Shown: positions 43,141 through 63,292 of the stretch, one piece after another
How positions within the stretch are numbered: position 1 is the first letter of the stretch
Layout of the letters: the number at the start of each line of letters is the position of its first letter
The notes under the pieces: model-generated
What the model saw: the letters and a program-made list of their open reading frames with translations, nothing else
Told to the model about the DNA's origin: nothing
Databases searched by the model: none
Position numbers and translations under genes: made by a program
Assembly (NCBI GenBank): GCA_963834265.1
Contig: CAWIAU010000001.1
Location: 71,572-135,571, forward strand
Reading direction: 5' to 3'
DNA length: 64,000 nucleotides
Origin: an uncultured bacterium
GTDB lineage: Bacteria > Patescibacteriota > Saccharimonadia > Saccharimonadales > 2-12-FULL-41-12

Positions 43141-43266
43141 AAAACACTAACTAATTTTCTGAAAAATCACCAATCCGTCATCACAACTACAGACGCCGAC
43201 GTAGTCATAAAACACTTCACCAAAAAATGCACCATAATCCCTCTTACGCGAAAATCATCCGACTAG
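43141..43266 (+). pseudogene. recF: Orphan recF 3'-end remnant (divergent duplicate of 42402-42515)
   Basis: In frame it reads KTLTNFLKNHQSVITTTDADVVIKHFTKKCTIIPLTRKSSD*, against the recF C-terminus KTLTNFLKNHQTVITTTDADVVIKHFTKKCTIIPLQR*. Identity is 98/111 nt. An in-frame TAA lies immediately upstream (43138-43140 region), so it is not translated as part of a gene. Confidence 0.85.
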
Positions 43267-44804
43267 TATAAAAAATTAATCGGTAAATTGGTTGCGTCGA
43301 CATCCTTTTCCAGCAGTAATTTGATGAGCTGGTCCCTGGATTTCTGCTTAGAGGCAGAACTTGCGCCATTTTTATCGCTGTCATACATCATACTTGCAGC
43401 TATGCCCTCGCCGGCTTCGGTAAATTTAACTGTATCGTGATCAATAGTCAGGTATATCGGTAATACCGAATCCAGCCTTGTTCCGATCTGAGACTTGTCT
43501 CCAAGCGCATAATGAAAGTTTTTATCGACCTCGTCGTCTTTTTCGTTATTCAGAACAAAATAAAGGCGGCCGTCAACACAGTTTATGCGCAAAATATTAT
43601 TGAATTCATTGTTGTATATTTGGAATGATGCAGTTTTTGATACTGAATATTTATATATAGCGTGCCCGCCGTCTGCAAGGTAGTAAAAGCTCTCATTATC
43701 ATTCGTGCATACTTGCTGAGCTGTATTTTTTACGCTGGGCAAGGGGCTTGTTTTGCCGTTTGATTCAAGAGTGTAAATTTTCTGTTCCTGGTCTCCGCTT
43801 AACAGGATAATTAAATTATCGCTTGTTCCGGCTGACAGACTATTTATGTGCCATTTGGGGCTTAGCTTAGTGTTTTTTGTCACTTTTTTTTGTTTTTTCT
43901 CGACAACAATTATTTTTGGCGCATGATCATCTCCGTTTTTGTTGTCTGCCTGATTATTTGCCGTCGCTTCGTCGCTGGTAGTGGAAAAAATGTATACAAA
44001 ATTACCAGTATCGAATACCTGAGCACTCTCTGGCTTCTCGTCTGAGAATAATTTTTTATCAATATTCAGCGCCTGATAACTCTCTGCTTTTGAATCGATT
44101 GTAAAATAAAGGACAGACTTCTGAGTGTCAAAAACTGCAAAACCTGCTTGCCGCGAAGCAGAGAAAGTGCGATCAGATACGTTGCCCGTAAACTCCTTGA
44201 TAGTCAAAGGGGCAGCATTTAGTGCTTTCTGGCTTCGTTTTTTTATCGTGAGACCGTTGCTGTCAACGCTGGCCGCCAAAAACTCTCCCCCAAAAGGCCT
44301 CAGAGCGAGAGAAGTGGTTTCCAGCGTTTTATAATAATTCTCATCTCCGGAATCGGCCGCCGCTGCAGTTGTGCCCGGACTTGGGTCAATGAGGCCGGGA
44401 GAGCTCGGTCCGCAGGAATAATAGACCGGAGTACCGGTTTGATCCTGTTTGGCGCAGCCAAGGCTGTGCTTTCCTAATAATATGCTATTTCTCGGCGGAA
44501 TTGTTTCGGCCAATAGTTTGTGTGACCATAATGGCCCCAGCTTTTTCCGGTATAGCGATTGGCTGTCTTTGCTAACTATCTCTACTTCATAGTCTCCGGA
44601 TCCAAGGAAAAATCTTTTCGACGAGTTCTTTAATTCGGTTTTTTCTTCAAACCCCTCTTTGCGTACGTATACGGTCCTTTCTTCATCGCCCGTACTTTCT
44701 ATCGTCAGCATGCTATGTGTCAGAAAAAAATGTAATAAAAATATGGAGGCAAGCAGCAGGATAGATAGTCGTACTCTTCGGTTCCTTAGTAGCCCGGGAT
44801 TCAT
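43263..44804 (-). CDS. Hypothetical membrane-anchored extracytoplasmic protein (last gene of the T4SS-like operon)
   Basis: 513 aa with an N-terminal TM (LSILLLASIFLLHFFL) and a beta-rich remainder. No family recognised. Separated by 10 nt from the upstream hydrolase gene. Confidence 0.5.
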   Translation of the reverse strand: MNPGLLRNRRVRLSILLLASIFLLHFFLTHSMLTIESTGDEERTVYVRKEGFEEKTELKNSSKRFFLGSGDYEVEIVSKDSQSLYRKKLGPLWSHKLLAETIPPRNSILLGKHSLGCAKQDQTGTPVYYSCGPSSPGLIDPSPGTTAAAADSGDENYYKTLETTSLALRPFGGEFLAASVDSNGLTIKKRSQKALNAAPLTIKEFTGNVSDRTFSASRQAGFAVFDTQKSVLYFTIDSKAESYQALNIDKKLFSDEKPESAQVFDTGNFVYIFSTTSDEATANNQADNKNGDDHAPKIIVVEKKQKKVTKNTKLSPKWHINSLSAGTSDNLIILLSGDQEQKIYTLESNGKTSPLPSVKNTAQQVCTNDNESFYYLADGGHAIYKYSVSKTASFQIYNNEFNNILRINCVDGRLYFVLNNEKDDEVDKNFHYALGDKSQIGTRLDSVLPIYLTIDHDTVKFTEAGEGIAASMMYDSDKNGASSASKQKSRDQLIKLLLEKDVDATNLPINFLY

Positions 44805-44814
44805 ATTGCCTCCA

Positions 44815-47685
44815 TTACTTAAACCCTACATGAATATGGTGATTATGATCGTCTATTACTCCGCCGTAGGTGGTATCGCAATCGGTAGGCTGGAGATTAT
44901 TAACACATTTTTGTCCGCTGGGCGGATACTTCCAGATCAGCTCGTCGATTTTGAGAGCCTGCCGGTTCCTGTATAGATAGGAGTACAATTTATCACCATC
45001 AGCGGTATGTCGCGAGTCGCCATTACCATAATAGCCGATATCGATTGCTCTGCCGGAGTTGTGCAGGCTATCGCCGCCCGAACAGCCTCCATGATCGGTT
45101 GCCATGGCATTGATCGGCAGCTTGACGCCGCTATGCTCTGCCATTGATACCAGGCCCGCCAGAGCTGTTTCTGTCAGGCAGTTTTGCACATCATCTTTTT
45201 GATCGGCTGCCGGCCCGTAATTCCCGTAAACAATTTTGGGGTGGTTCAGGGCTTTTTGTATCAGCTCAGCTTTCGTCCCGGAACTAACCGAGTCAGATCC
45301 TCCGCTTCCGCCGGCACCACTACCGCAGCCACCGGCTGACGGATCGGCAGCAGGAGCGGCACTCCCCGTACCGGCAGTTCCGCCCCCAAATCTATTGAGC
45401 CACGTCGTCGCGTTCGGAAGTCGTATGTTCATTTCTCTGTCGAAACATGCTGCCTGACCGGCTCCGGGCAAGCAGGGAACCTCAAATTTTTCCAGCCAGA
45501 TCCTTGTTGCCTCTGCAATGTTAGTCGACGCCTTGATAGGATCGAGCACGGTGGATTTATAGCCGGAGCTTTCCAGCTCTTTTTTCATATATTCCAGCTG
45601 AATTCCAAGATCGCTTTTGTCTTTGCCTTTGCTGGCCGCATAAGCTTCCAGTGCGGCCCTTCGGGGCCCCACCCACTGGATAATCCCATAGGCGTCACTC
45701 TCCGGGCCTACGTATGCTGCTTCCGGATCAAATCCGGATTCCTGCTCAATATTTCCCATGATACCTGCGGCCTGCGTGTCGTTGAATCCCATTTCCGTAA
45801 TCAGGTAATTCCATATCTGTTCTTCGTTGCCGTTACCTGTCAGAACGGTCGAGCTGCTGCCTGCAGAACAGCAGGCGGCATTGATGGGCTCTGTGGATGT
45901 GGCTGTCTGCGAGGTACTGCTTTTAAGCTTACTGATTCTTTTGGTTGATTTCTCTATGTTGGCCTGAGAAATATTGCCGTCATTTACATCTTTTTCGACT
46001 CTGTCAATCGTAGCCTTGACCTGCTCATCCAGACTGCCGAAAGAGGAGTTTTTATTAAACAAGGGCATGTCGGCACCAGCCTGAATAGCCAGAGAGACAG
46101 CTTGAGGCGGACTGTATTTATCTACAATAGCTCTCATGTTGGCGATTTCATCGGTAAAAACAACCCCGTCAAAGCTAAATTCATCCCGGAGCAATGCGTA
46201 GGCACGCTCATTTATGCTGGTCTGCTCATGTGCTCGTCCTTCGGTCAGGCCGGGCACAACCAAGTGGCCCATCATAACGCCGCTTTCGCCTTTTTTCATC
46301 AGAGTTTTATAGGGAACAAGATCGCTGCTACGCAGGGAGCTGATATTAGGAGTTTTGACCACAGCGGTATGTGAATCGCCGTCGGCTCGTCCATGACCCG
46401 GAAAGTGCTTGAATACAGGCGTCAGGCCAGCCGATCGCATGCCTGCAGCGAAAGCACCTGCTTTCTCGGTTATTTTTGCTTCATCGCCGGAGAATGCCCT
46501 GTTGTTGCCGCTTATTACGGAGTTGCTGCCATTATCAATGTCTACTACAGGAGCATAATTTACAGTTACGCCCAGTTCAGCAAGTTTGTCTCCGTACTCT
46601 TTGGCTGATTTCTCCACTTGTTCAGTCGTCATTCCGCCTAAAGTCTTGGCGTTTGGGTATGCTCCTGTCTGGCCTTTGAGTCGCTGAACACTACCTCCCT
46701 CTTCGTCTGAAGCGATTAGTAGCGGCGTATCACCGGCAGCTGCCTTGATTTCGCTAATTGCAGATTTGCTATAGAGTGAAGTTGACTCATTGGTCAGCAT
46801 AACGCCGCCGACTTTATACTTCCGAACAACGTCAATCATCTCTTGTTTGTTGTTTGTGGCGCCTACGAACATCATCTGCCCGATTTTTTCTCTCAGGCCG
46901 GGATCCTCGGCCTCAGTGCTTGCGCGCGCACTGCTCCCGCCGCCTCCGGCTTGTGCTATTTGGGCCATTTTATCCATGATGGCTGTGGCTTCGCTCAGAT
47001 AGGCTGCATTGCCCTCCGCTCCTTCGCTAACATATGCTTCAACAAAGCCCTGCATGTCTCCGGCATCTATTGCTGACCCGTATTGGCTTCTTATGTAGGC
47101 CGCCATGTCGCCGCCGCCATTCGCATTTTGATTCTCAGCCGCAGTATGATCGACACTTGCTTTCATAGAAGTCCATTTGTACCAGTACGGAATAGCGCCG
47201 CCGCCATCAAAATGGGGCTGACTGGCAGTGGCGCTTCGGCCAAAGGCGTTATTGCCCTTTTGAACATTGTTATCACCTGGGTTGGCAAGGCTCGACTCGT
47301 TTTGGGCAATCGCAACCAATAAGAAAGGATTGATGTTAGAGTTTTGAGCTCCGTCAACAATCGTTCCACCGTGCCCGCTTAATTTACTCGAAGGATTGGT
47401 TTGTTGAATATATGTGTCTATTGCTGATGCCATAGCGACGGGAGGCAGGTTTGGAAAAATCGCACCGGTAGGGGTCCCTGAACCAGGGGCAACTGTGCTT
47501 ACCGGCGTTGCTGCGCCGCCGCAGGGGTCAAGGTCGTAGTAGTTAATTTCTCTGTCAAATATTTTCTTTTGTTCGGGAGATAAGGCCCGGACGACAGGAC
47601 CTCCACAGCTGACAACCATAAACGTGACAAGGATTAATAATGTAAGACAACGTACAAAAAAATTCTTTCTGTTCATTTGCCGCAC
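44815..47685 (-). CDS. Secreted multi-domain peptidoglycan hydrolase (lysozyme-like, GH3 NagZ-like, phage-tail-lysozyme-like, LAS/M15-type peptidase)
   Basis: N-terminal TM/signal. FLLVAIAQNESSLANPG (lysozyme-like E-S). GH3 motifs: KIGQMMFVG, SDEEGGSVQRL, KHFPGHGRADGDSH. GIMGNIEQESGFDPEA..YGIIQW (phage tail lysozyme-like). C-terminal HNSGRAID ... HHIHVGF (Hx6D ... HxH zinc site of LAS peptidases). Confidence 0.75.
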   Translation of the reverse strand: MRQMNRKNFFVRCLTLLILVTFMVVSCGGPVVRALSPEQKKIFDREINYYDLDPCGGAATPVSTVAPGSGTPTGAIFPNLPPVAMASAIDTYIQQTNPSSKLSGHGGTIVDGAQNSNINPFLLVAIAQNESSLANPGDNNVQKGNNAFGRSATASQPHFDGGGAIPYWYKWTSMKASVDHTAAENQNANGGGDMAAYIRSQYGSAIDAGDMQGFVEAYVSEGAEGNAAYLSEATAIMDKMAQIAQAGGGGSSARASTEAEDPGLREKIGQMMFVGATNNKQEMIDVVRKYKVGGVMLTNESTSLYSKSAISEIKAAAGDTPLLIASDEEGGSVQRLKGQTGAYPNAKTLGGMTTEQVEKSAKEYGDKLAELGVTVNYAPVVDIDNGSNSVISGNNRAFSGDEAKITEKAGAFAAGMRSAGLTPVFKHFPGHGRADGDSHTAVVKTPNISSLRSSDLVPYKTLMKKGESGVMMGHLVVPGLTEGRAHEQTSINERAYALLRDEFSFDGVVFTDEIANMRAIVDKYSPPQAVSLAIQAGADMPLFNKNSSFGSLDEQVKATIDRVEKDVNDGNISQANIEKSTKRISKLKSSTSQTATSTEPINAACCSAGSSSTVLTGNGNEEQIWNYLITEMGFNDTQAAGIMGNIEQESGFDPEAAYVGPESDAYGIIQWVGPRRAALEAYAASKGKDKSDLGIQLEYMKKELESSGYKSTVLDPIKASTNIAEATRIWLEKFEVPCLPGAGQAACFDREMNIRLPNATTWLNRFGGGTAGTGSAAPAADPSAGGCGSGAGGSGGSDSVSSGTKAELIQKALNHPKIVYGNYGPAADQKDDVQNCLTETALAGLVSMAEHSGVKLPINAMATDHGGCSGGDSLHNSGRAIDIGYYGNGDSRHTADGDKLYSYLYRNRQALKIDELIWKYPPSGQKCVNNLQPTDCDTTYGGVIDDHNHHIHVGFK

Positions 47686-50600
47686 CTATTTGCCATAGGA
47701 GCAAAGTCCCAGTGCCATGATTCTGCGCTGTACTGCTTGATACCGAAATCTTCCGAATTTTCTCTCATCCATTTGTATTGGGGTCCGTCATGGGTCATTC
47801 TGGCCGAGCAGACCTGCTGTCCGTTTGCTTCAAATCCGCCCATGTCCGCAAAATCTATCGCCCAGCCTGCCTGATGGGGCGATCCACCCGGCGTGGCGCA
47901 TTGAACACCTGTACCTGATCCCTGACAGGAGTCAGGCAAGCGGAATGAACTGCTTGATGACAGATTTACGCCATCGTCTTTTGCTTTTTTGGCAAGCGCC
48001 GACCAGCCGCCGGACACCCGGGCTTCAACCACAGCACCGCCGTGAGTTTTTGTGCCATTAGGGTCTTGTCCTTCGCCCGGAATGTCAGGAATTTCGCACA
48101 GACGCAGCTTCAACGGGCCAGACTCTTTTTTGAACTCACCGCTATATTGGCTGGTTACGACGCCAAGATCATTTGTGCCTGCTGCGCAGCTTAGGTTATC
48201 CGAGCTTTTGCCAAGATCTGTAATATCGACTGTTGCGCCGGCGCCCCCTGTGGTTGTGCTTGCGGCTGCAGAAGGGGCCGGATCGTAGCCCAGTTCTTTG
48301 CAGGTGGCTATGGTGTCCGGGTCATCAGGGTTGCCGTCATAACATGTAACTTCCTTCATCTTCCCTGTATAGAAGACAAAGAGAATGATTCGCTTCCAGT
48401 TTGGATCACTGAGATCATCACATTTGCCGTCCCTGTATTCCGGGCTCCGGGGATCTGTTTCGTCATCAGGCACAACATCCCATAGTCCGGAATCTTTGCT
48501 GATTATAACACCGAAACAATTTAAGGCTCGTTTCGGATATTTATCGCCGGTGCTACTCAGGATGCCTGCTGCTTTATCCGCGTTATCATAGGGGTCCTGG
48601 TAGGCGGGATCATCGAACAGGTCACCCGGGATTCCATAATCGGGCAGGGCACTCCAGTCATAATCCGGACCAGCAGCATGTGCCACAGGGCTGAATGCCG
48701 GAAAAAGGCCGGTGGCAAATGTATTTATATTAGCCAGACTGGTGGCAATGTTCGTAATGTTCTGACCGGGATCAGTGCTGCTGCTGTCAATAAAACTGGA
48801 GGCTACGGACCGGTGGTCATAGACGTCAAATATTCGCCCGGAGAAGCTTTTGGCCCGGAACTCCTGCTGGCTGGCAAGTTTTTGTTCTTTCTCCAGAACT
48901 GCGCTGGCTGCCGGAGTTCTCTCGATGCCACCCACACTGCGGGCAGCAGTACCGGCACCCGCTTTGCTGGCCCAGGCCAGAACATTGCCCCCACGCGGAC
49001 CTGCCAGCGGTGCCTCGAATGTCACCTTGTCTGCCGCTGCCTTCTCGGCGCGGTTCATGACCTGCCCGAGGACTACGGTAGTAGCGGCAGCACTGGAGCC
49101 GGCAATAAGCACTTTTGCGGTCCATCCAACCGGTGGTGCTGCCCAAATCAGACCGACACCTAATATGCCCTGAGCAATAAGTCCCGGCGTACTACAAACT
49201 GTATCTCCTACACTGTCTGCTATAGCGTCTACATCCGACTGACCTTTCAAGGAGAATATACCTTTTTCTTCATCCGACAGATCCTCTCCGCTGGGCTTGA
49301 CCTTGCCCGAGAGAGCTTGCAGCGCCCTGCCACCGAAGACATCTCTGCCGGTGTCATCTTCCAAAGCATAGCCCCAGTCGCCGGGATCGGCGGCGAGTAA
49401 TCTGCCGTCTGTAACGTTGGCCCCTTTGGCCATCTGATGTGTTGTCTCGACTGTGGCAAGTGCTACATCAGCGCGGTCGGCTTGCGTACTAAATCCCCGT
49501 ATCTCCCTGATTATACAGGCCGCCGCCGTAAAAGTAAGCGCTATGGATAATCCTGTCCGTTTGGAGTTGAGTGTTTCTTTGAGGCCTGCTTTGGCTGCGG
49601 CGCCCTTGATTCCGACTTTGCTTTGCTTGAATTTCGCGTATCTTTCTTCGCCCGCTGCCTTGGCGGCCGCCTTGGCTTTTTGCCTGTCACTTCGATTATT
49701 GGCTAATCTTTCTTGCTTAGTTTTAAAATATCTGGTCACCGGACTCAGCAAGCCGGGCTGGTTATAAAATATTTTGAATTCGCGTATACGCAGGGCATTG
49801 AGCAGCGTACCGTCAGCTGCCTCCCTGATCGACGTGGTATAGAACAAGTCAACGATTTTGGAACCATTGAATGTTGATGGATCCAGTTTAATTTTTAAAA
49901 ATTTCCCGTCTATATCAACATCCGTGGCGTCCAGAAACGGATAGTTCTTCAGAAATGATGCTTTCCGCTCCTCCATAGTGGCAATACCAATTGTATTCTT
50001 GTTTACGTCAGTGTCTACGGTTACGCCCCGGATACCGTTTGTCATCTTGTTAGTTTCGCCGAAGTCGAAGCCTGCTACAGTTAGCTTAGCTGTAGTCCTT
50101 TTGACCATCGCGCTGCCGAGTGCGCCGACGCGGGTTTCGCCGATATTGCCGGTTCGGGCAAATCGTATTAAGCCCCGCATTCCGATAGATGAGTCATTCT
50201 CATTGCCGAAGTGTGCTTTTTGCAGTATCTGCGACAGATGAATTATCTTAAGAGGCCCTACGCCTATAAAGGCTCCGAACATAAATACCGCTGCGATTAC
50301 TCCGACTATACCGCCAGCACCTGCTTTCTTCTTCTTGCTGCCAAAAAGCGCTGCGCCTGCCGAGGAAAGTGCCAGAGCCAGCTTGGCCGAAGGAGGTAAA
50401 AATTTATCAGCGACATTCAGGCCGTCACCGATCAAGCCCTTTTCTGCTTTGCCCACTATGCCTTTGGCTCCGCTGCCGGCAGCTTCCTCCCCGCTTTTAA
50501 GATCTCCGCTACCGCGCGGTTTTTTCGAATGCCGGCTCATATCACCGGGCCTGGTTGAACTGCCACCGTCAGTATAGGGGTTGGCGTCGGGTGTTCCGGC

Positions 50601-51125
50601 GGCAGTATTCGTGCCGTTATTGCTGTATTTGCCAGGATCAAATGTATTACCAGATAAATTCGGGTCAGCTTGGTCGTCATAGACAGGTTTGGCCTGCTGC
50701 ATAGGCCTGTCGTCGCTCAGATTCTGGTCTTTGGTGTAGCGATCCATTTCTTCGGGCCGTGTTGAGCTGCCGGCATAGGGGTTCCCGGTTGGCGTACCGG
50801 AAGCGGTATTGTTTGCACCATACCCGTCAGGCGACGGCTTATACTGTTGCAAGTTTCCGCCACTACTGCCGTGATCTGCTGAGCTGGCAGGTTTTCCTGA
50901 CATAGGCGAAGCACTACCCGGGCCCTGGCTTTTCCGGTGGCTACTCATGTCGCCGGTCTGGGTTGAGCTTCCGGTATAGGGATTGGGCGTAGGTGCGCCG
51001 GAGGCCGTATTATTCGAGCCGGCATTACTTGCAGATAGCTTATTTCGATTCAGGCTCCCCCTGCTCTTGTTAGGGTCTCCGGATCTTGCTTCCCCTCTTT
51101 TGCCTAAAGGTGTGAATTTCGCCAT
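47673..51125 (-). CDS. Giant membrane protein with repeat-rich disordered N-terminus, TM segments and a C-terminal VanY/M15B-like D,D-peptidase domain
   Basis: 1150 aa with three N-terminal repeats NNTASGxPTxNPYxGSSTxxxxMxxxxK. Hydrophobic segments include GGIVGVIAAVFMFGAFIGVG and GILGVGLIWAAPPVGW. C-terminal GGSPHQAGWAIDF ... ESWHWDF matches SxHxxGxAxD ... ExWH of VanY-type peptidases. Confidence 0.65.
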   Translation of the reverse strand: MAKFTPLGKRGEARSGDPNKSRGSLNRNKLSASNAGSNNTASGAPTPNPYTGSSTQTGDMSSHRKSQGPGSASPMSGKPASSADHGSSGGNLQQYKPSPDGYGANNTASGTPTGNPYAGSSTRPEEMDRYTKDQNLSDDRPMQQAKPVYDDQADPNLSGNTFDPGKYSNNGTNTAAGTPDANPYTDGGSSTRPGDMSRHSKKPRGSGDLKSGEEAAGSGAKGIVGKAEKGLIGDGLNVADKFLPPSAKLALALSSAGAALFGSKKKKAGAGGIVGVIAAVFMFGAFIGVGPLKIIHLSQILQKAHFGNENDSSIGMRGLIRFARTGNIGETRVGALGSAMVKRTTAKLTVAGFDFGETNKMTNGIRGVTVDTDVNKNTIGIATMEERKASFLKNYPFLDATDVDIDGKFLKIKLDPSTFNGSKIVDLFYTTSIREAADGTLLNALRIREFKIFYNQPGLLSPVTRYFKTKQERLANNRSDRQKAKAAAKAAGEERYAKFKQSKVGIKGAAAKAGLKETLNSKRTGLSIALTFTAAACIIREIRGFSTQADRADVALATVETTHQMAKGANVTDGRLLAADPGDWGYALEDDTGRDVFGGRALQALSGKVKPSGEDLSDEEKGIFSLKGQSDVDAIADSVGDTVCSTPGLIAQGILGVGLIWAAPPVGWTAKVLIAGSSAAATTVVLGQVMNRAEKAAADKVTFEAPLAGPRGGNVLAWASKAGAGTAARSVGGIERTPAASAVLEKEQKLASQQEFRAKSFSGRIFDVYDHRSVASSFIDSSSTDPGQNITNIATSLANINTFATGLFPAFSPVAHAAGPDYDWSALPDYGIPGDLFDDPAYQDPYDNADKAAGILSSTGDKYPKRALNCFGVIISKDSGLWDVVPDDETDPRSPEYRDGKCDDLSDPNWKRIILFVFYTGKMKEVTCYDGNPDDPDTIATCKELGYDPAPSAAASTTTGGAGATVDITDLGKSSDNLSCAAGTNDLGVVTSQYSGEFKKESGPLKLRLCEIPDIPGEGQDPNGTKTHGGAVVEARVSGGWSALAKKAKDDGVNLSSSSSFRLPDSCQGSGTGVQCATPGGSPHQAGWAIDFADMGGFEANGQQVCSARMTHDGPQYKWMRENSEDFGIKQYSAESWHWDFAPMANRCGK

Positions 51126-51155: not shown

Positions 51156-53072
51156 TTACATGCCAGGGGACAGCCGGTTCTCCAGATCTATTGTGCCGCT
51201 AGCTCCGCTTATTTCGCCGGTCTGCTGGATTTGTCTGACCTCGTCAGGGTTAGTGGTTATGAGTGTCTGTTCAGTCGGACTGGCGGTGATCTGGATGTGT
51301 ACGTGGTTCTGACCGGCAAAGAACAGCCCCTGGCCGACGGGGAACTGGCTGAGGCGCTTACGTTCCTCACTGGTGAGCCGGAAGACATCAGCCAGCACAT
51401 CAACGGCTGACGGCGACTGTTTAAGCAGAATTTGCATGCTGGAGTTAGCCACGATGGCGCGGCCCATACGACTACCCATAAAGTCCTCGACATCCTGAGT
51501 GATAGTCGTTAGTCCCATATTGTATTTGCGGCACCGCTTGGCAATACTGAACAGGAAGTTAGCACTATCCTCGTATTTCATCAGTTGCCATGCTTCATCA
51601 ACTATCAGCAGGCGCTTGCGCTGATCGCCCTTTGTCTTGTTCCAGATGTGATTCAGGACAATATACATGGCTACGGGCCGCAGCTCGTCTTCCAGATCGC
51701 GGATATTAAATACCACCAGCGGATTATTGATATCGATATTGCTTTGCTGAGAAAAGATACCGGCGAAAGTACCGGTCGTATATTTGCGTAATCTTTGGGC
51801 CAGTTGTGGGCCGGTGTTGCCCATATGCAGCAATGTTTCGTACAAGTCGTTAATTGTCGGCGGGATTGAGCTATGCGTCAGCGGATCATTGGTAATCCCG
51901 GCCTTGGCATAGGTTTCGATAAGTGCCGCATCCAGATCAGCTTCTTCTACCGGAGTCAGAGCCGGCATGACCACTCCGGTCCCGCCTTGCATCTGAGCCT
52001 GAGCGCCACCCATCATCAGACGCAGCAAGCCGTGTAAAGTTATCAGGTTGCTGCGAAGAGCATTATCGGCTTCTTCGGTGTCAACAACCAGGGGCAATTC
52101 AAACGGATTAATGCGGGTAGGCGAATTAAGACTCAGCTGTACATATGCTCCGCCGACAGCCTCACACATGCGCTGATACTCATTCTCGGGATCTATGATG
52201 AAGATTTCTGTGCCCAGCATCATGCTGCGGAGTGCCTCAAGTTTGACGGTAAAACTTTTGCCGGCACCGGCTTTGGCAAACACGACAGAATTGCCGTTTT
52301 CAAGCGTGAAGCGGTCAAAAATCACCAGACCGGAGTTATGCATGTTTATGCCGTACAAAATGCCATTCTCCTGTGTCAGGTCGGCACTGGTGAAAGGAAA
52401 GCTGGTAGAAATAGCACCGGTATTCATATTGCGTCGAATCTGTAACTGATCAGTAAACTGCGGCACAGTACTGTTGAGCCCCTGTTCCTGCTGCGAGCTG
52501 GCCGGCTTGGAATAGACGAGTTGCTGACCAAAGATCGATTCAATCTTATGGGTCACAAACTCCAGCTCTTCCATCGAGCCGGCATAGACCGTAAAATACA
52601 ATCCAAAGCGGAAAAATCTCTCTTCGCCAACCTGCAACTTATCCCGCATTTCCTCGGCGTCCAGAATGGCATTTTCTTTTGCAGGGTCGCGCACATGACC
52701 CTTTTCGGCGTCCATCATACGGCCGGCTTCCAGCTGGGCTACCTTTTTTTTCAGATTCTCCAGTACCACCTGACTTTCGACAGGATAGATAAACATCGAA
52801 AGGTCAATAACCTCGTCCAGGTTCACCATACTGCTGAGCCAGCCCGTACTGAGCGAACGAGGGTAGCCGTAGACAAAATAAGTGCGGGCATATCGCGTTC
52901 CGAGCTGAAAGTGACTATTTGAAAATTCTATGGAGCTGGGGGCGATAAAGTCACGTAGAGCCGTAATTCCCTTTTGAAAAGCAGTGGAGACCTCCTGCTG
53001 CTCCCGGTTGCGCTGCGCCTGTGCCAGAGCCGCCGGATCAAGCTGAGGCTTGTCTTTTTTGAACACTCCCAT
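51156..53072 (-). CDS. virB4: Type IV secretion ATPase, VirB4/TrbE/PrgJ family
   Basis: Walker A FAKAGAGKSFTVK and Walker B RKRLLIVDEAWQLM. The N-terminal region FIAPSSIEF..YARTYFVYGYPRSLSTGWLSSMVNLDEVIDLSMFIYP is typical of monoderm VirB4 homologs. Start moved to the ATG at 53072 (MGVFKK), which has AGAGG 9 nt upstream. Confidence 0.85.
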   Translation of the reverse strand: MGVFKKDKPQLDPAALAQAQRNREQQEVSTAFQKGITALRDFIAPSSIEFSNSHFQLGTRYARTYFVYGYPRSLSTGWLSSMVNLDEVIDLSMFIYPVESQVVLENLKKKVAQLEAGRMMDAEKGHVRDPAKENAILDAEEMRDKLQVGEERFFRFGLYFTVYAGSMEELEFVTHKIESIFGQQLVYSKPASSQQEQGLNSTVPQFTDQLQIRRNMNTGAISTSFPFTSADLTQENGILYGINMHNSGLVIFDRFTLENGNSVVFAKAGAGKSFTVKLEALRSMMLGTEIFIIDPENEYQRMCEAVGGAYVQLSLNSPTRINPFELPLVVDTEEADNALRSNLITLHGLLRLMMGGAQAQMQGGTGVVMPALTPVEEADLDAALIETYAKAGITNDPLTHSSIPPTINDLYETLLHMGNTGPQLAQRLRKYTTGTFAGIFSQQSNIDINNPLVVFNIRDLEDELRPVAMYIVLNHIWNKTKGDQRKRLLIVDEAWQLMKYEDSANFLFSIAKRCRKYNMGLTTITQDVEDFMGSRMGRAIVANSSMQILLKQSPSAVDVLADVFRLTSEERKRLSQFPVGQGLFFAGQNHVHIQITASPTEQTLITTNPDEVRQIQQTGEISGASGTIDLENRLSPGM

Positions 53073-53166
53073 CACCAAAGCCTCTTGCTTTGCGCAAATA
53101 GCGAATAGCAATTAGTAGTCAGCTGGTTACCGTAAATTCCCGATTTCAAATTCCTGATAACTTTTC

Positions 53167-54123
53167 TCATTGAATGTTTTTTTCCAGATTAGGCTGCGGA
53201 GCAAATCCGGTGCCCTTAGTTACAATCGGAGCAGTCAGATCATCAAAGTTTTTTAGCTGTTGCCTTGTAGCAGTATCGGGGTTATAGGTATCGTAGTACA
53301 GCTCGATTAGTTCCTGCGTGTCCAGAGGCAGGCCCTGGATACCGCACTGCCCCAGCCCGCCCAGTACGGCTTGTACGCGGTTGCGTAGTTCGGTCTTGGC
53401 ATCTTCCAGCGTTTTCTCGTTTATCACTATGTGGGCGGGAGTATTGTCAAACAATCCCATGACTCCGCTGAGCAGATTTTTGCTGGAAGTCAGTGCCTTT
53501 TGCTCCTGTATTTTTGGAAAAAACGGAATGACAACATAGAAATGCTTATCCATAATATTGGTCTGGGCCGCCAGATTATCGATGTAATTTAAATAGTCAT
53601 CCATCAATAATGCCAGTAGCATATTGTCGTGCTCAGTACGGATTTTATCCAGCTTTTCGATATAAGGGCGCAAGTCAATTTTTTGTGAGCGGATAAAGAT
53701 CTGAATCGGGAAATATAGTGAGTTCAGGAAGCCCTGATAACCATACTCAACGCCCTCGCGTTCCTCGGGACTCATCAGATCAAAATTGATAGACTGAACC
53801 ATTATTACTGAGCGAAATGAACCGTCATTCATGATCACGATACCATCACGGACTTCGGCGATCTGCAAATTATTCTGTGTACTGTTGGGGTTGACTGATT
53901 TGCCGGGGGTAGCGGGGGAAATAATGGGCGCATTGGGGTCGCCCGGAATGAATGAACCGGGTTGCAGGTCCGGTGCGAAGTTCGCACGCGGATCCGGCGC
54001 AAAAACAGGCTGAGATACCTGAGGGCCGGGGTCTGTGTATACTGCCCCCCCGCCAAGAGGAGGCAATGAAGCCTGCCCCGCAGGCTGTGCGATAGTCTGT
54101 TGCTGGGGATCGTTAGGATTCAT
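53167..54123 (-). CDS. Hypothetical T4SS-associated protein resembling a VirB4 N-terminal domain without ATPase motifs
   Basis: 318 aa. After a P/Q-rich N-terminus: LQIAEVRDGIVIMNDGSFRSVIMVQSINFDLMSPEEREGVEYGYQGFLNSLYFPIQIFIRSQKIDLRPYIEKL. This parallels the N-terminal layout of VirB4-like proteins. No Walker A or B motif. Confidence 0.4.
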   Translation of the reverse strand: MNPNDPQQQTIAQPAGQASLPPLGGGAVYTDPGPQVSQPVFAPDPRANFAPDLQPGSFIPGDPNAPIISPATPGKSVNPNSTQNNLQIAEVRDGIVIMNDGSFRSVIMVQSINFDLMSPEEREGVEYGYQGFLNSLYFPIQIFIRSQKIDLRPYIEKLDKIRTEHDNMLLALLMDDYLNYIDNLAAQTNIMDKHFYVVIPFFPKIQEQKALTSSKNLLSGVMGLFDNTPAHIVINEKTLEDAKTELRNRVQAVLGGLGQCGIQGLPLDTQELIELYYDTYNPDTATRQQLKNFDDLTAPIVTKGTGFAPQPNLEKNIQ

Positions 54124-54161: not shown

Positions 54162-55265
54162 TTAACGGAGCGAAATAATCACTTCGTTTCTATCGCTTAA
54201 CTGCTGGCTTTTTTTGGCTTGCCGTGCGATAGTTTCTACGCTCAAATCATCGTTCTGTGCCAGATCAAGTATAACAGGAGACTGCGAAGTTGTCATCGTG
54301 CTTGAGGTTTGCGCCGGACCTGTTATTACCTCATGCGTTCCGGTCTCCGCGGAACTCGGTTTCGCGGCTATGGTTGGCGGTGCGACCGGCCCGGAAACCG
54401 GTACTGTGCGAAGCCGCCCGTATGCTTCGTTCCCGACCTGACTCTGCGCGCGCAACTGAGCACTCAATTGTTGTTCTGTGGCATCCGGTGCCGCAAAGGC
54501 CGGCGGTAATGAGTCGCCCGCCGCAGAAGTCGGCAACGAAATGACCGGTGTATGATGCTGCGGTGGTACAAAAGGTACCTCTGGTTGCTGTACGGATTCC
54601 AATGACTCACCGCGCCGGATGCGTTCCATCTTTGCCAGGCTTTCATCACGCCGGATGACGCTGCTGGACTGAATCATCTGGTCGAAGTTAGCGGCGATCG
54701 AGTTCGCTCCGGTGTCCATTACATCGTGGACCTGATTTACGTCAAAATCCGGCACAGATTTTGTCATCATTGATGGGGTGATTAATCGGTCTCCCATACC
54801 GCTAAATCCCATATCCACGGCGGCAGCCGTCAGACTCGAGTTTTTGATCGCCCAGCCACGACTGTCGATTGTCTCTGCCAAAGCCCTCAGCCGGCTCGTA
54901 ACTTCGTTCTGGCTCAGATTATTGGTAAGCTGATGTTCAATAATTTTGGGCACAGTAATTGTAACGAGTTCTTTTACTCCGGACTGGTTCCATATCCGTC
55001 GCTTGGGCTTGATATAAAACCGCATTTTAGCCAATACCCATACCTCAGTCGGCTGATCCTTGCTCCAGGGAATGGCCAGAAATGCGCCCAGAAATGCCGG
55101 TGGCAAAAATATTGCCAGCATCCAGGCGGCATTCTTGGTTATCGCAAAGAAACTCAAATACAAATTTATCGCCGCAATGGCGCCAAATATAAATTGTTTG
55201 AGTGTCAAAGGTCCGAGGAATTTGTCCTCAGCCTCAATGTCCTGCAGAACTTTGTACGTAGCCAT
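54162..55265 (-). CDS. PrgI-family (VirB3-like) T4SS membrane protein with long C-terminal extension
   Basis: MATYKVLQDIEAEDKFLGPLTLKQFIFGAIAAINLYLSFFAI plus a second TM helix, as in PrgI-type proteins of monoderm T4SSs. About 250 additional low-complexity residues follow. Confidence 0.55.
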   Translation of the reverse strand: MATYKVLQDIEAEDKFLGPLTLKQFIFGAIAAINLYLSFFAITKNAAWMLAIFLPPAFLGAFLAIPWSKDQPTEVWVLAKMRFYIKPKRRIWNQSGVKELVTITVPKIIEHQLTNNLSQNEVTSRLRALAETIDSRGWAIKNSSLTAAAVDMGFSGMGDRLITPSMMTKSVPDFDVNQVHDVMDTGANSIAANFDQMIQSSSVIRRDESLAKMERIRRGESLESVQQPEVPFVPPQHHTPVISLPTSAAGDSLPPAFAAPDATEQQLSAQLRAQSQVGNEAYGRLRTVPVSGPVAPPTIAAKPSSAETGTHEVITGPAQTSSTMTTSQSPVILDLAQNDDLSVETIARQAKKSQQLSDRNEVIISLR

Positions 55266-55326: not shown

Positions 55327-55746
55327 ATGGGAGCGACTACACATACTGAAATTTCGGGTAAAACTAAGCGTTTCAGCGGCAATGGCCGGGGACTGGGCTA
55401 TCCGACGGCCAATATCAACACAGATGTCGAATTAATTGACGGAGTATATCTGGGGTATGCCTCTCTGGGAGAATTTAAGGATAATCCGGCTATGATTTTT
55501 GTCGGCATACCTGCAACTGTCGGTGATAAAGTCTGGCGGGTAGAAGCCCATCTGCTGGATATTCCCGATCAGGATTATTACGACCTGCCAATAAGTGCCC
55601 GGCTCATTCACTATATTCGCCCCAACCAGACATTCGCGTCTGTCAATAAGCTACAGGAACAAATGAAGGACGACGAAGCCTATGCGAGAAAGTATTTTAA
55701 AGGAGCAGGACCGTACTCCACAATAATTCCTGAGGGCAAGAAATGA
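55327..55746 (+). CDS. Monofunctional riboflavin kinase (RibF C-terminal-domain type, no FAD synthetase domain)
   Basis: GNGRGLGYPTANIN, DGVYLGY, VGIPATVGD..RVEAHLLDIPDQDYYDLPISARLIHYIRPNQTFASVNKLQEQMKDD. Confidence 0.8.
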   Translation: MGATTHTEISGKTKRFSGNGRGLGYPTANINTDVELIDGVYLGYASLGEFKDNPAMIFVGIPATVGDKVWRVEAHLLDIPDQDYYDLPISARLIHYIRPNQTFASVNKLQEQMKDDEAYARKYFKGAGPYSTIIPEGKK

Positions 55747-55872
55747 TGATTTTTGATCACAACAGACAAACTCTGACAAAGCATAGCCATAGCTATGGTG
55801 CGAAAGTGTTTGCCGGGTTGTGGACAAAAAGGGCAGCTTTGGGACCAGAAACTTTATTGTGGAGTACGTCTG

Positions 55873-56460
55873 GTGTTTAGCGGCATTATTACTGATACGA
55901 CAGAGGTGATAAAGCTTGAGAAAGTGCCGGACGGACTCAGGCTTACCTTTAAGTGTCCGGATCATTGGACTGACCTGGTCTTGGGCGAATCAATCGCCAC
56001 AAATGGCGTGTGCCTGACGATTGATGAGGTTTTTGATGATAGTTATAGTGCCACGCTTATCCCTAAGACTCTTCAGATGACTACTTTTGGACAGACTGTT
56101 CCTGGTCGGGTCAATCTGGAGCGTGCGCTGAAAGTCGGCGACCGGATATCAGGACACTTCGTTCAGGGACATGTTGATGATGTAGGAACAATTGCAGAAA
56201 TTGACCAGGCCGAGGGATATACGATTCGGATCAGCTATCCTGAAGATAAGCGGCCTTTGATCGTCGAAAAGGGATCAATCACTGTCAACGGCATTGCTCT
56301 GACAGTTTCGGATATAACTTCCGGCAAATTCTCAGTATCACTGGTGCCGCATACCCTGCAGCAGACGACATTCGGCGACCTGCAGACAGGCGATCTGGTC
56401 AATCTGGAGTATGATGTATTAGGCAAATATATAATCAACTCGATTGAAGCGCAGAGGTAA
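55873..56460 (+). CDS. ribE: Riboflavin synthase (alpha chain)
   Basis: From the GTG at 55873 (GGAG 8 nt upstream): MFSGIITDTTEVIKLEK..GESIATNGVCLTI.. with the duplicated half ..GSITVNGIALTVSD..LVPHTLQQTTF. The track's upstream extension (from 55795) is non-conserved. Confidence 0.85.
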   Translation: MFSGIITDTTEVIKLEKVPDGLRLTFKCPDHWTDLVLGESIATNGVCLTIDEVFDDSYSATLIPKTLQMTTFGQTVPGRVNLERALKVGDRISGHFVQGHVDDVGTIAEIDQAEGYTIRISYPEDKRPLIVEKGSITVNGIALTVSDITSGKFSVSLVPHTLQQTTFGDLQTGDLVNLEYDVLGKYIINSIEAQR

Positions 56461-56463
56461 GTT

Positions 56464-56913
56464 ATGAGACAGTCAGAAACAGGAGATTTTCAACTTTTTG
56501 ATGCCAGCCGATGGAAGATTGGTATCGTCGTCGCGCAGTTCAACCGGGAGATTACAGACAAATTACTGCAATCGGCGCTGACGCGTGCTGAGGAATATAA
56601 GATCCTGTCAGAGAATATTACAGTGGTCAAAGTCGCAGGTTGTATTGAGATTCCTCTGGCATTACAGCTTCTGGCAGACTCCGGAGATTATACCGCGCTT
56701 CTGGCTACGGGCTGTGTAATCCGCGGCGAGACTCCGCACTTCGACTACGTCAACAAGTTCGTCAGCGAAGGCGTATTGCGTGTGACTCTGGACAATAAGA
56801 TTCCCATAGGCTTCGGTGTCCTGACTTGTGATAACCAGGCTCAGGCAAAGGCTCGTCAACATCTCGGTGCGGAACATCTGGATGCCGCCTTACAGCTCGC
56901 TCAGGCTCTCTGA
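56464..56913 (+). CDS. ribH: 6,7-dimethyl-8-ribityllumazine synthase
   Basis: KIGIVVAQFNREITDKLL, VKVAGCIEIPLA, GCVIRGETPHFDYV. Confidence 0.9.
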   Translation: MRQSETGDFQLFDASRWKIGIVVAQFNREITDKLLQSALTRAEEYKILSENITVVKVAGCIEIPLALQLLADSGDYTALLATGCVIRGETPHFDYVNKFVSEGVLRVTLDNKIPIGFGVLTCDNQAQAKARQHLGAEHLDAALQLAQAL

Positions 56914-58222: not shown

Positions 58223-60169
58223 TTAAGGAGCTTCTGGCGGTCTTTGCCCAGCAAGTTCGCTTTGGTACTCACGGCGTACTGACTGGAAGTCTGCATTGCC
58301 TCGCGCAGCCGTGATAGCTTGTGAGTAGCTTATTGTACCTGTTAATCTGCTGGTTTGGACGCCATGTTCATCAGTCTGAACTAATGCTGGCGCAAGAAGT
58401 GCTCTCATCTCGGGAGTTAGAGTAGCTATATCAATCTCCTGGCTCAGAACTTGGTTGGAGAATTCCTGAGCATTCTGGTCAGAAGCCTGCGATGCGGCAT
58501 CGTAACGGTTGGCCAGGATAGCCAGCTGGGTAGCGGCCGTTCTTTGATCCCCGCTAGCCAATGCTGCGTTGGCATTTTCCAACATTACGGGCGCAAGTTG
58601 GGTAATTGATTGTATTCTGCCCAGCACCGCCCGGGAGCCATTGCCACGCAATGAGGATTGCAGGATTTCGTGGGATACCTGATCGGCAGTATGTGTTTCT
58701 ACTCCACCGGCAGCTACAGCATCGAGAGAAGCTTTGCGCTGGCTCATTTGACTGGCGGAATCGGTGAAGCCGCCGTAGAGGTCCAGACGCTCGGCGTTCT
58801 TAGCGCTCTCGCGCATTTCCTGTAGCATGCGGATTTCGGTCGTTTCGTCGCCGCCGGAGGCATCCAGAATCATATCTACCATCTGGCCGGCATTAACGAT
58901 ACCGGTACCAGTACCGGGCATGGCCCGCGTAGCGGCGATGCGGTAGGCAGCGGTGCTGGTGCCTTTTCTGGCATCCATGATTTCTGCCACGGCAGCATTC
59001 ATCTCTGCGGAGTTGCGATCAGTACCAAAGCGATGTCCGACATGGTTGCCATCATGATCCACAAGATGCCCTCTCTGCCACAGTTGTTCGCGAACGGCCG
59101 CTTCGCCCTCCTGCAAACTAGCCCATAGCTTATCGTCATCTCCGCTAATGCGCTGGAACTTAGTGTCGGTCTTGGCGTAATCGGTTGCAGCATCGAAGGT
59201 AGCTCCCCCTGTTAGGGATCCGCGCCTCTGTGCGTAACCCTGCCGGAAACCCTGCCCCCGGCTGAAGCTTCTGACTCCATGGCTCAGGCTGGGAAAAACG
59301 GTGCCGGCTGTCAGGCCACCGGTTTTGCGAGTGGTGCGGGCTCTTGCGGCCCGGCGTCCCAAAAAGCTGTTTTCGTTCTCTGTGGATTTTCTGATTCGCT
59401 GACGCAGACCACCGGAAGCTTTGCCGGTCTGGCCCTGAGCAATGTCGTGCATGGCTCCCAGTACGCCGCCGGCGAATTTGAATGCAAATGGTATCAGGAA
59501 TAGCGGAGCATATATAACAATGATACCCGTCATAATCATGGCCAGACCAGCGACCCCGGTTACGCTGCTTTTTGTAGCCCCATCCAGAATTATTGCCGCC
59601 AGGACATCTGACATGGTGAAGATGGCGGCAATGATCGGATAGACCATCAGTGTCTTCAGAAATATACTCCACCACTGGCGGAAAAACTTCTCTGTCCCGG
59701 GCAATACGAACAGGGCGATAGCTATAGGCGCGACAATGATCAGAAATACCAGGAGGCCCTGGCGGATGATAACGGTGAATAATACTGCCAGAGAAACCAG
59801 GGCAACAGCTACAATCACGCCCAGAATAAACGGGAGCAGGCCGCCAATCAATGCTATACCCTCCGCCGCCACAGTAGTACCGCCCACGGCCGCGGCAGCA
59901 AACAGGCTTCCTACCAGGGCATTAATGCCCACGGCTCCGGCTACAACACCGCCCGCAGCGGTGGCTCCGTTGCTGACATTGTCTTTGAGCTTGATATCGA
60001 AAATCTCAGCCTCCTGGAAAGGAGTGATCAATAACTGACCTAAACCTCGGCCGACGATGTTGGTCAGGTCTACGGCTGCCAGGCACAGGTAAATTGAGAT
60101 GTTGACAGCTATAACAGCGATCAGCAGGCGCGGGGCCATTTTGCGCAAAGTGTAGGCATCTAACTGCAT
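58223..60169 (-). CDS. TrbL/VirB6-like polytopic T4SS membrane protein with soluble C-terminal domain
   Basis: 648 aa. The N-terminal ~250 aa hold about 6 TM helices (LLPFILGVIVAVALVSLAVLFTVII, LLVFLIIVAPIAIALFVLPG, WWSIFLKTLMVYPIIAAIF), an architecture typical of VirB6/TrbL. Called from architecture and context only. Confidence 0.55.
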   Translation of the reverse strand: MQLDAYTLRKMAPRLLIAVIAVNISIYLCLAAVDLTNIVGRGLGQLLITPFQEAEIFDIKLKDNVSNGATAAGGVVAGAVGINALVGSLFAAAAVGGTTVAAEGIALIGGLLPFILGVIVAVALVSLAVLFTVIIRQGLLVFLIIVAPIAIALFVLPGTEKFFRQWWSIFLKTLMVYPIIAAIFTMSDVLAAIILDGATKSSVTGVAGLAMIMTGIIVIYAPLFLIPFAFKFAGGVLGAMHDIAQGQTGKASGGLRQRIRKSTENENSFLGRRAARARTTRKTGGLTAGTVFPSLSHGVRSFSRGQGFRQGYAQRRGSLTGGATFDAATDYAKTDTKFQRISGDDDKLWASLQEGEAAVREQLWQRGHLVDHDGNHVGHRFGTDRNSAEMNAAVAEIMDARKGTSTAAYRIAATRAMPGTGTGIVNAGQMVDMILDASGGDETTEIRMLQEMRESAKNAERLDLYGGFTDSASQMSQRKASLDAVAAGGVETHTADQVSHEILQSSLRGNGSRAVLGRIQSITQLAPVMLENANAALASGDQRTAATQLAILANRYDAASQASDQNAQEFSNQVLSQEIDIATLTPEMRALLAPALVQTDEHGVQTSRLTGTISYSQAITAARGNADFQSVRREYQSELAGQRPPEAP

Positions 60170-62293: not shown

Positions 62294-62301
62294 GGCAGCC
62301 T

Positions 62302-63290: not shown

Positions 63291-63292
63291 TT

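Follow-up and report, generated by a model that had tools for sequence, protein, structure and literature searches.

Two predicted peptidoglycan hydrolase genes, multidomain and module-swapping, next to VirB4 in the origin-proximal type IV secretion locus of a Saccharibacteria-type genome

Introduction

A 64,000-nucleotide stretch of contig CAWIAU010000001.1 (assembly GCA_963834265.1), from an uncultured bacterium of the Saccharimonadales (Patescibacteriota), carries two adjacent large genes, here called gene A and gene B, that are predicted to encode peptidoglycan hydrolases and that directly follow the VirB4 gene of a type IV secretion system (T4SS). This locus raises the question of why a secretion system would be equipped with such an assortment of wall-degrading modules, and whether these act on the wall of the producing cell or also on that of another bacterium. 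In related species the T4SS is without a relaxase or a coupling protein (PMC10633639), and it is needed for epibiotic growth and not for conjugation.

A first-pass annotation of this DNA, made by a model from its letters, had described the pair as giant wall-hydrolase genes that combine at least five lytic domain types inside a T4SS operon. Both open reading frames (ORFs) lie where that annotation had placed them, on the minus strand, and the T4SS context is borne out by VirB4, a TrsD-like protein, PrgI and VirB2-like pilins. Five lytic modules can be recognized, the GH3, phage lysozyme and VanY modules firmly by profile searches and the GH73-like and LAS modules by lower-level evidence. Here, we describe an analysis of the two genes, their relatives and their genomic setting. 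It establishes firmly that their products are peptidoglycan enzymes, exported or anchored in the membrane, whose genes are expressed together with those of the T4SS core; their catalytic activities are predicted from sequence.

Results

Genes A and B belong to the VirB4 operon

Gene A begins 30 nucleotides (nt) beyond the VirB4 gene, and the genes for PrgI, the TrsD-like protein and VirB4 all lie upstream of genes A and B, in the same orientation and separated by 30-55 nt (Table 1; all coordinates are positions within the 64-kb window, that is, the whole stretch of DNA that was analysed). From PrgI through to the gene that follows gene B, the intergenic gaps are 10-55 nt. Counted from a GTG start, the gene B ORF spans 44815..47685 on the minus strand and encodes 956 amino acids (aa). 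The likelier start is an ATG at 47676, which gives a protein of 953 aa; this ATG overlaps the stop codon of gene A by 4 nt as ATGA, a classic sign of translational coupling. Pfam positions and residue numbers of the gene B modules are given in the 956-aa frame. In public annotation the gene is called from M23 onward (934 aa; P0001), and exact-sequence look-ups with the GTG-start and ATG-start forms found no identical entry. The pair has the attributes of T4SS-linked hydrolases: it lies within a T4SS cluster, is conserved across genomes and possesses a signal peptide and transmembrane (TM) segments.

Gene B encodes a predicted exported protein with four lytic modules

The signal region of gene B contains a possible lipobox (VVS/C) and a family-conserved signal-peptidase I site (VRA/LS), and the mature N-terminus that the latter would generate, ALSPEQKK, is kept in relatives. 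The protein is predicted to be exported through Sec and may carry a lipid anchor. Its four modules are connected by flexible linkers rich in G, S, A and T.

Module 1 of the window protein, searched alone, matched no Pfam family, PF01832 included. Its family is represented by a ten-member alignment (A2), in which module 1 is 51-61% identical to the eight closest members and 34% identical to the ninth, P0088. Seven of the ten sequences matched PF01832 Glucosaminidase (GH73), with a best E-value of 2.2e-5. Residues E97, N113, F115, G116, Y185 and Y196 are invariant in A2, and a profile of the family, compared with the Protein Data Bank (PDB), aligned its 'ES' and 'NNxFG' motifs with those of pneumococcal LytB (7pj3) at an E-value of 0.67. 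An AlphaFold model built on A2 had a mean confidence (pLDDT) of 74.7. When this model was compared with the PDB by Foldseek, the best 14 matches were all GH73 structures, among them LytB, the Clostridium perfringens autolysin, the C. difficile endolysin glucosaminidase, AtlE and SagB; match probabilities reached 0.99, but E-values were 0.16-2.5, and TM-scores were 0.44-0.61 for the longer alignments. Family matches and modelled fold together lend moderate support to a GH73-like glucosaminidase. A word-index homologue search with module 1 returned one protein, whereas phmmer on the fetched proteins found eight strong relatives, and the sparse word-index result is therefore a limitation of the tool.

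Module 2 matched Glyco_hydro_3 (PF00933) at aa 264-586 with an E-value of 1.2e-61 and 209 bits, against a cut-off of 27. Its match to the NCBIfam beta-N-acetylhexosaminidase model (3e-44, 151.5 bits) falls under that model's 207-bit cut-off, so the module is a member of the family and not an equivalog of NagZ. It aligns end to end with LpqI of Mycobacterium tuberculosis (6gfv; 1.4e-64). The segment KHFPGHGRADGDSH constitutes the NagZ signature KH[FI]PG[HL]GxxxxD[ST]H, which holds the Asp-His dyad, and is aligned with those of LpqI and YbbD; the Asp of an FTDE motif is aligned at the SDD/TDA nucleophile position. The family alignment shows no variation at K423, H424, F425, P426, G427 or D509. 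The evidence for a GH3 domain is strong, and its catalytic signature is intact. The linker between this domain and the following lysozyme module (about 45830-45930; aa ~590-620) contains a Cys-x-Cys/CC motif, of which C603 is invariant in 13 of 13 aligned members while the linker is otherwise variable.

The best solved relatives of module 2 are the actinobacterial LpqI-type enzymes of M. tuberculosis, M. smegmatis and Corynebacterium (1e-64 to 1e-56), and matches to Bacillus subtilis YbbD and Gram-negative NagZ are at about 1e-35 or weaker. The first-pass annotation had regarded the module as a cytoplasmic recycling enzyme in an unusual place. This view was not sustained: LpqI and YbbD are lipoproteins, the closest solved relatives being extracytoplasmic proteins of monoderms, and a secreted GH3 enzyme is therefore the norm for this subfamily. 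In a neighbour-joining tree, saccharibacterial and actinobacterial GH3 sequences form one clade apart from those of Bacteroidota and Firmicutes, with a mean identity of 38% versus 29%. The main saccharibacterial group (11 sequences) is sister to the actinobacterial clade and not nested in it; the GH3 sequence of a related locus, L020, has a branch of its own, and a more basal group is made up of four further sequences. An exchange of the GH3 domain with the host phylum is possible, its direction not being callable from a neighbour-joining tree whose sampling is biased by the query. A literature search on Saccharibacteria with NagZ found nothing relevant.

Module 3 matched Phage_lysozyme2 at aa 620-766 (E-value 9e-34; 117 bits against a cut-off of 28.2), and the Glu of its GNIEQESGF motif (E646) is invariant in alignment A1. 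Among PHROG families, its matches were to tape-measure and tail proteins (1e-17 to 5e-12). These results argue strongly for a domain of the phage tail lysozyme type. The SLT family (PF01464) also scored on gene B, beneath the Phage_lysozyme2 match, with 20.1 bits, below its cut-off of 21.3; gene B is best regarded as encoding a VirB1 analogue and not a family-level homologue.

Module 4 is a candidate LAS-type zinc peptidase. The zinc-ligand pattern is present (SLHNSGRAID and HNHHIHV), its spacing being weakly supported by alignment. The Pfam match, to HH_signal at 0.0029, is sub-threshold; PDB matches were to 9flh (0.14), with both zinc motifs aligned, and to Sonic hedgehog (0.35); and a precomputed match to PF26571 VldE is graded 'weak'. 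PHROG comparison returned an endolysin family (3e-4) and a tape-measure family (8e-4). By tblastn the module matched an ORF of cyanophage S-CRM01 (1e-4) and, more weakly, 69 further records, mostly from actinophages (to an E-value of 0.8), including tape-measure proteins. A word-index homologue search with the module returned nothing, and a single-sequence AlphaFold model was discarded (pLDDT 39). An alignment by eye of the gene B C-terminus to the LAS-like ends of two relatives, P0012 and P0015, was dropped because phmmer did not support it. Weak as they are, the matches all lead either to the LAS (Hedgehog/DD-peptidase) fold or to lysins of phages, and the assignment to a divergent LAS zinc peptidase is thus weak but convergent.

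Gene A encodes a membrane protein ending in a VanY/LdcB-type peptidase

The first ~265 residues of the gene A product are disordered and rich in G, S, A and P. The threefold repetition that had been claimed for this region is real: three repeats of ~30 aa give pairwise local alignments with z-scores of 11-15 against shuffled sequences. Tandem Repeats Finder found no repeat in the DNA of the region, and the repetition is visible only in the protein. A strong TM segment (TM1) follows, and a weaker hydrophobic hairpin lies near the middle of the protein. A KKKK run precedes TM1, and by the positive-inside rule the N-terminus is therefore probably cytoplasmic; both large regions, that bearing the peptidase included, would then face outward. 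At the C-terminus, VanY (PF02557) matched aa 1037-1143 with an E-value of 1.5e-7 and 31.7 bits against a cut-off of 25, or with 4.2e-9 when the C-terminal fragment was searched alone, and the gene A family profile matched the structures of VanY, YodJ and LdcB at 8e-13 to 2e-5. This peptidase and module 4 of gene B belong to one superfamily, LAS.

The gene A family is large, with 1217 clusters (at 50% identity) at an E-value of 1e-3 or below and 410 at 1e-30 or below, and its shared core comprises aa ~260-960. Over this core, the family profile matched no solved structure. Gene A was considered as the VirB6 equivalent of this T4SS and rejected in that role, which is filled by a separate polytopic protein (Table 1). 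We propose that gene A encodes a conserved membrane subunit with a large ectodomain that would end in an exchangeable enzyme.

The GH3 and M15 domains named in the first-pass annotation are thus both recovered by profile searches, well above the cut-off for PF00933 and above that for PF02557. The catalytic signatures that it listed are intact, as judged by the alignments to LpqI, by family-invariant residues and by the presence of the motifs, and nothing suggests that the domains are degenerate binding modules.

The pair is conserved and has a counterpart in Southlakia epibionticum

The pair is not a one-off. The order VirB4, A-like gene, B-like gene was found in five other loci (L006, L016, L020, L081 and L082), two of them in metagenome-assembled genomes (MAGs) named Candidatus Saccharibacteria, and the A and B reading frames are overlapping or near-abutting. 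PrgI and a TrsD-like gene also lie upstream in L006, L020 and L081. The recF, dnaN and dnaA genes follow on the other strand in L006, L016, L020 and L081, and the short contig L082 extends from the A-like gene to recF. The architecture in which a GH3 domain is fused to the phage lysozyme was found in Candidatus Saccharibacteria MAGs and in small-genome bins. The B-like protein of L082 (P0012; 631 aa) is without a GH3 domain, occupies the same genomic context and is 61% identical in module 1.

In S. epibionticum ML1, SEML1_0008 is VirB4; in SEML1_0007 (1113 aa), residues 951-1105 form a Hedgehog/DD-peptidase domain; SEML1_0006 (643 aa) comprises a lysozyme-like domain with PF01832, then a phage tail lysozyme, then a cysteine protease; and all three genes were scored essential by transposon sequencing (Tn-seq) (PMC10633639 supplements). 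The window pair shares with SEML1_0007 and SEML1_0006 its place directly after VirB4 and beside recF, dnaN and dnaA. Gene A and SEML1_0007 both encode proteins of ~1100 aa with a C-terminal domain of the Hedgehog/DD-peptidase fold, and the products of gene B and SEML1_0006 both open with a predicted glucosaminidase-like lysozyme fold, to which a phage tail lysozyme and then a peptidase are joined; the likeness is one of position and described architecture, not of aligned sequence. SEML1_0006 differs from gene B in that it is without GH3 and ends in a cysteine protease, not in a LAS metallopeptidase. The pair as such is therefore already known, though barely described: SEML1_0006 and SEML1_0007 appear in the literature only as "peptidase and lysozyme homologues" (PMC12102498). 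The GH3 insertion, the module swapping in both proteins and their fast divergence are new, and none was found described in the literature.

Both proteins exchange modules and diverge faster than VirB4

In B-like proteins, the phage lysozyme core is combined with GH73-like, GH3, SGNH, beta-lactamase-like, M23, NlpC/P60, Amidase_3, C39-like or LAS modules. Among 46 sampled A-like proteins, the C-terminal domain is VanY in 24, Amidase_2 is present in three, and single members carry an alginate-lyase-like domain, an EEP nuclease/phosphatase or papain-like (AvrRpt2-like or C39-like) proteases; the A-like protein of L016 has an M14 carboxypeptidase. This variety hints that the gene A C-terminus may be a general, exchangeable payload position.

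When the window was compared with four related genomes, identity was 78-84% for VirB4, 70-76% for the TrsD-like protein and 65-76% for DnaA. Over its core, gene A was ~33% identical or undetectable by BLAST; gene B was 34-51% identical, in the shared modules only; and the product of the gene that follows gene B was 30% identical in L081 and undetectable against L016. Genes A and B diverge much faster than VirB4, and the gene that follows them changes at the same pace as they do.

The surrounding T4SS cluster and other surface-related genes

Next in the operon after gene B is a gene for a 513-aa protein, with no match in Pfam, NCBIfam or PHROG. A gene for a protein of ~500-520 aa occupies the same position in L016, L081 and L082, and in ML1 two smaller exported proteins are found there, with PEGA/Ig-like and prealbumin-like folds (PMC10633639 supplements). 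Beyond it, on the opposite strand, lie recF, dnaN and dnaA. DnaA, DnaN and gene A of the window are encoded together on one public contig of 720,390 bp, and the genome measures about 0.72 Mb. The coordinates of the main features of the locus are collected in Table 1.

Table 1. Genes, predicted modules and neighbouring features of the locus (positions in the 64-kb window)
Feature	Coordinates	Strand	Basis or remarks
Gene A	47673..51125	-	ORF, 1150 aa; membrane-anchored, T4SS-linked; positional counterpart of SEML1_0007
Gene A repeats (three, ~30 aa, NNTASGxPxxNPYxGSSTxxxxM)	50523..51017	-	aa 37-66, 105-134, 169-201
Gene A TM1, strong	50241..50318	-	aa ~270-295; hydropathy peak 2.32
Gene A hydrophobic hairpin, weaker	49056..49193	-	aa ~645-690; hydropathy peaks 1.5-1.6
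Gene A VanY/LdcB-type M15B zinc carboxypeptidase	47697..48017	-	C-terminal; motifs SPHQAGWAID and ESWHW
Gene B	44815..47676	-	953 aa; exported four-module peptidoglycan hydrolase (predicted); positional counterpart of SEML1_0006
Gene B signal peptide	47584..47676	-	hydropathy 2.37
Module 1, GH73-like endo-beta-N-acetylglucosaminidase (predicted)	46936..47484	-	QNESS Glu, NNAFG motif and tyrosines conserved
Module 2, single-domain GH3 LpqI/NagZ-type exo-beta-N-acetylglucosaminidase (predicted)	45928..46896	-	Pfam, NCBIfam, PDB alignment
Module 3, phage-tail lysozyme PF18013 (GNIEQESGF)	45388..45828	-	Pfam and PHROG
Module 4, divergent LAS-type zinc peptidase, candidate (SLHNSGRAID ... DDHNHHIHV)	44818..45285	-	weak convergent matches
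VirB4	51156..53111	-	NCBIfam CD1110-family VirB4, 4.9e-110
TrsD/TraC-like	53167..54123	-	NCBIfam TrsD, 1.4e-5
PrgI/VirB3-like	54162..55265	-	Pfam PrgI, 6.8e-12
513-aa protein gene	43263..44804	-	N-terminal TM segment; 10-nt gap after gene B
Polytopic VirB6-like protein	58223..60169		hydropathy; L081 counterpart matches TrbL_3
Riboflavin-kinase domain gene	55327-55746	+	
Riboflavin synthase with lumazine-binding domains	55795-56460	+	
Lumazine synthase-like ORF	56464-56913	+	assigned by eye

On the other side of PrgI, the cluster contains an array of four VirB2-like pilin genes (61493-63706, plus strand), of which the first two match PF18895 T4SS_pilin and the last two were judged by eye. In the first two pilins (266 and 225 aa), a long Cys-rich N-terminal extension precedes the pilin domain. 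The array agrees with the essential pilin arrays reported for Saccharibacteria. A 387-aa protein (56990-58153, minus strand), with no family match and no TM segment, has an extremely Arg/Lys-rich C-terminal half and could be a nucleic-acid binder. Three riboflavin-pathway genes on the plus strand (55327-56913) lie inside the cluster, between PrgI and the remaining T4SS genes, and are unexpected in a type of genome known for minimal biosynthesis.

Other wall- and surface-related genes are found elsewhere in the window. Beyond yidC, at 33036-35942 on the plus strand, lies the gene for a 968-aa protein that contains an SGNH/GDSL hydrolase domain, and L081 has an SGNH protein of 917 aa in the corresponding place (22287-23012); a further conserved esterase of the wall or of glycans may thus be encoded close to the origin. 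The surface-type proteins clustered at 9729-15274 include two with bacterial Ig domains and/or DUF5648 (9729-11732 and 13889-15274) and one in which Peptidase_M23 is combined with FG-GAP repeats (11735-13237); these are candidate adhesins or further wall enzymes. A surface-polysaccharide locus occupies positions 1-31000 and encodes a sugar transferase, glycosyltransferases of families GT1, GT2 and GT4, a Wzy-like ligase, an ABC-2 exporter, a DegT aminotransferase and epimerases. GC content is 0.38-0.41 at 18-26 kb versus about 0.48 elsewhere, and part of this locus may have been horizontally acquired.

Discussion

Besides SEML1_0006 and SEML1_0007, genes A and B have parallels in the monoderm T4SS hydrolases PrgK of pCF10, TraG of pIP501 and CwlT of ICEBs1, which like the window pair are encoded in a T4SS operon near VirB4, are exported or membrane-anchored and combine a glycan-cleaving with a peptide-cleaving domain. 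The window pair differs from them in placing four modules on one protein and a fifth on its neighbour. In giving T4SS hydrolases one or two domains, the first-pass annotation slightly understated the known range, since PrgK already has three. In PrgK, TraG and CwlT an SLT or CwlT-type lysozyme is accompanied by CHAP, NlpC/P60 or LytM, and to our knowledge none of them has a GH3 or GH73 domain. Module 2 by itself resembles LpqI (M. tuberculosis Rv0237) and B. subtilis NagZ/YbbD, which are exported and share its KHFPGHGxxxxDSH Asp-His signature and its predicted nucleophile Asp; with LpqI it also shares a single (beta/alpha)8 domain. Those enzymes are stand-alone recycling enzymes, whereas module 2 is embedded between two predicted endo-glycosidases in a T4SS operon. 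In having a PF18013 lysozyme followed by a candidate metallopeptidase, gene B resembles the tail-knob protein gp13 of phage phi29 and the tape-measure lysins of actinophages, proteins that cut the target wall from outside. Most relatives of gene B have the M23 version of this lysozyme-metallopeptidase pairing, and the match of gene B to the gp13 structure 3csr is weak. Unlike the phage proteins, the gene B product is no part of a virion, is predicted to be Sec-exported and is encoded with a secretion system.

These observations make it fairly probable, in our judgement, that the pair is a wall-degrading accessory of a chromosomal, oriC-proximal T4SS in a Saccharibacteria-type epibiont, which opens peptidoglycan, that of the host included, and whose products may be salvaged. 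Genes A and B are probably co-translated with VirB4 and PrgI, and their products would work on the outer side of the membrane, where secretion takes place. There, the GH73-like module and the phage-type lysozyme (a muramidase) would between them cleave both kinds of glycan bond, and the LAS peptidase would cut or trim the stems. The endo-acting modules would thereby open peptidoglycan for the channel and the VirB2-like pilus, in the cell's own wall and, we infer, in that of an actinobacterial host. A GH3 enzyme of this type is expected to act only on non-reducing N-acetylglucosamine (GlcNAc) ends, and a VanY/LdcB peptidase only on stem termini; being exo-acting, these two would process fragments and not make holes. 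They could trim muropeptides to GlcNAc, N-acetylmuramic acid (MurNAc)-peptides and shortened stems, which might be salvaged. In this context, TM7x is reported to be unable to make uridine diphosphate (UDP)-GlcNAc (PMC10768705). The exo-acting pair, the tail- and tape-measure-type modules 3 and 4, the module swapping and the rapid divergence together suggest that the substrate probably includes the host wall, so that the breaching or harvesting of another cell's wall, as the first-pass annotation had proposed, is plausible but unproven.

Several points weigh against this interpretation. Membrane or lipid anchoring would hold the enzymes at the surface of the producer, which fits a remodelling of the cell's own wall, of the VirB1/PrgK type, just as well. 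Fast evolution is general among exported proteins, and the divergence of genes A and B is therefore no specific evidence for host targeting. The ML1 counterpart is without a GH3 domain, so the pair can do without this domain in its core function. Finally, for the window protein itself, the scores behind the GH73-like module and the C-terminal LAS module are sub-threshold.

It is conceivable, though we think it rather unlikely, that the pair serves self-wall remodelling only, as a hole puncher of the VirB1/PrgK/CwlT type for assembly of the T4SS and its pilus, with the extra modules providing redundancy or fine-tuning. The place beside VirB4 resembles that of PrgK, CwlT and TraG, which adjoin VirB4 in monoderm T4SSs (PMC12102498), and the signal peptide or lipobox of gene B and the TM anchoring of gene A would retain the enzymes on the producer. 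The multidomain make-up of the pair is in itself no obstacle, as PrgK too is multidomain. Yet enzymes of the GH3 and VanY/LdcB families work on chain or stem ends and make no holes, and two of the gene B modules are of the kind that phages use for entry from outside. Moreover, the chemistry of a cell's own wall is constant, whereas related genomes differ by module swaps in these proteins, whose divergence far outpaces that of VirB4.

The likeness of the GH3 module to the extracytoplasmic LpqI and YbbD, taken with the reported inability of TM7x to make UDP-GlcNAc (PMC10768705), could also speak for a scavenging enzyme unrelated to secretion, which would recycle or feed on muropeptides as LpqI or NagZ/AmiE do and owe its place in the T4SS operon to co-expression near oriC; the proximity of the T4SS to dnaA has been noted, and closeness to oriC has been suggested to raise expression (PMC12102498). 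The order VirB4-A-B in five of five other loci, with frames overlapping or near-abutting, renders this improbable, as do the GH3-less relatives (P0012 in L082, and SEML1_0006) that keep the same position: the conserved part is the endo-acting lysozyme core, not GH3. Least probable of all, to the point that we give it very little credence, is the delivery of gene A's variable C-terminal domain, and perhaps of gene B as well, to the host by the T4SS as a polymorphic effector and not as a resident enzyme. In favour of such a role are the long, disordered, repeat-bearing N-terminus of gene A, predicted to be cytoplasmic and otherwise unexplained, and the exchangeable C-terminus, which in the family ranges beyond wall enzymes to papain-like proteases, an EEP nuclease/phosphatase and an alginate-lyase-like domain. 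Most C-termini of the gene A family are, nevertheless, peptidoglycan enzymes, whose site of action lies outside any membrane. The TM segments and the gene B signal peptide point to Sec/YidC insertion and not to passage through the channel, and neither a processing site nor an immunity gene was found.

The interpretation of the pair as a wall-degrading T4SS accessory can be carried a step further, tentatively and with more doubt than conviction. The two proteins may form a host-facing device of the saccharibacterial T4SS, with modules matched to the peptidoglycan of each actinobacterial host, that both breaches the wall and feeds the cell, the LpqI-type GH3 domain, which was perhaps exchanged with the host phylum, yielding free GlcNAc for an epibiont unable to make amino-sugar precursors. 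If true, this would give one concrete activity to a secretion system whose function in Saccharibacteria was called completely unknown in a 2024 perspective (PMC11665869).

A life attached to host bacteria is shared by Saccharibacteria and other Patescibacteria, and the T4SS is essential for it. The hydrolase pair beside VirB4 is itself essential in the one species tested, S. epibionticum, and has been mentioned only in passing. The present analysis replaces a vague annotation with testable hypotheses about a fast-evolving, module-swapping toolkit, in which an LpqI-like GH3 domain stands beside phage-type modules in some lineages and a carboxypeptidase is supplied by the neighbouring protein: endo-acting modules would open the wall, exo-acting modules would process the fragments, and the type of module would track the wall chemistry of the host. 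The same modules are candidate lytic enzymes against Actinobacteria.

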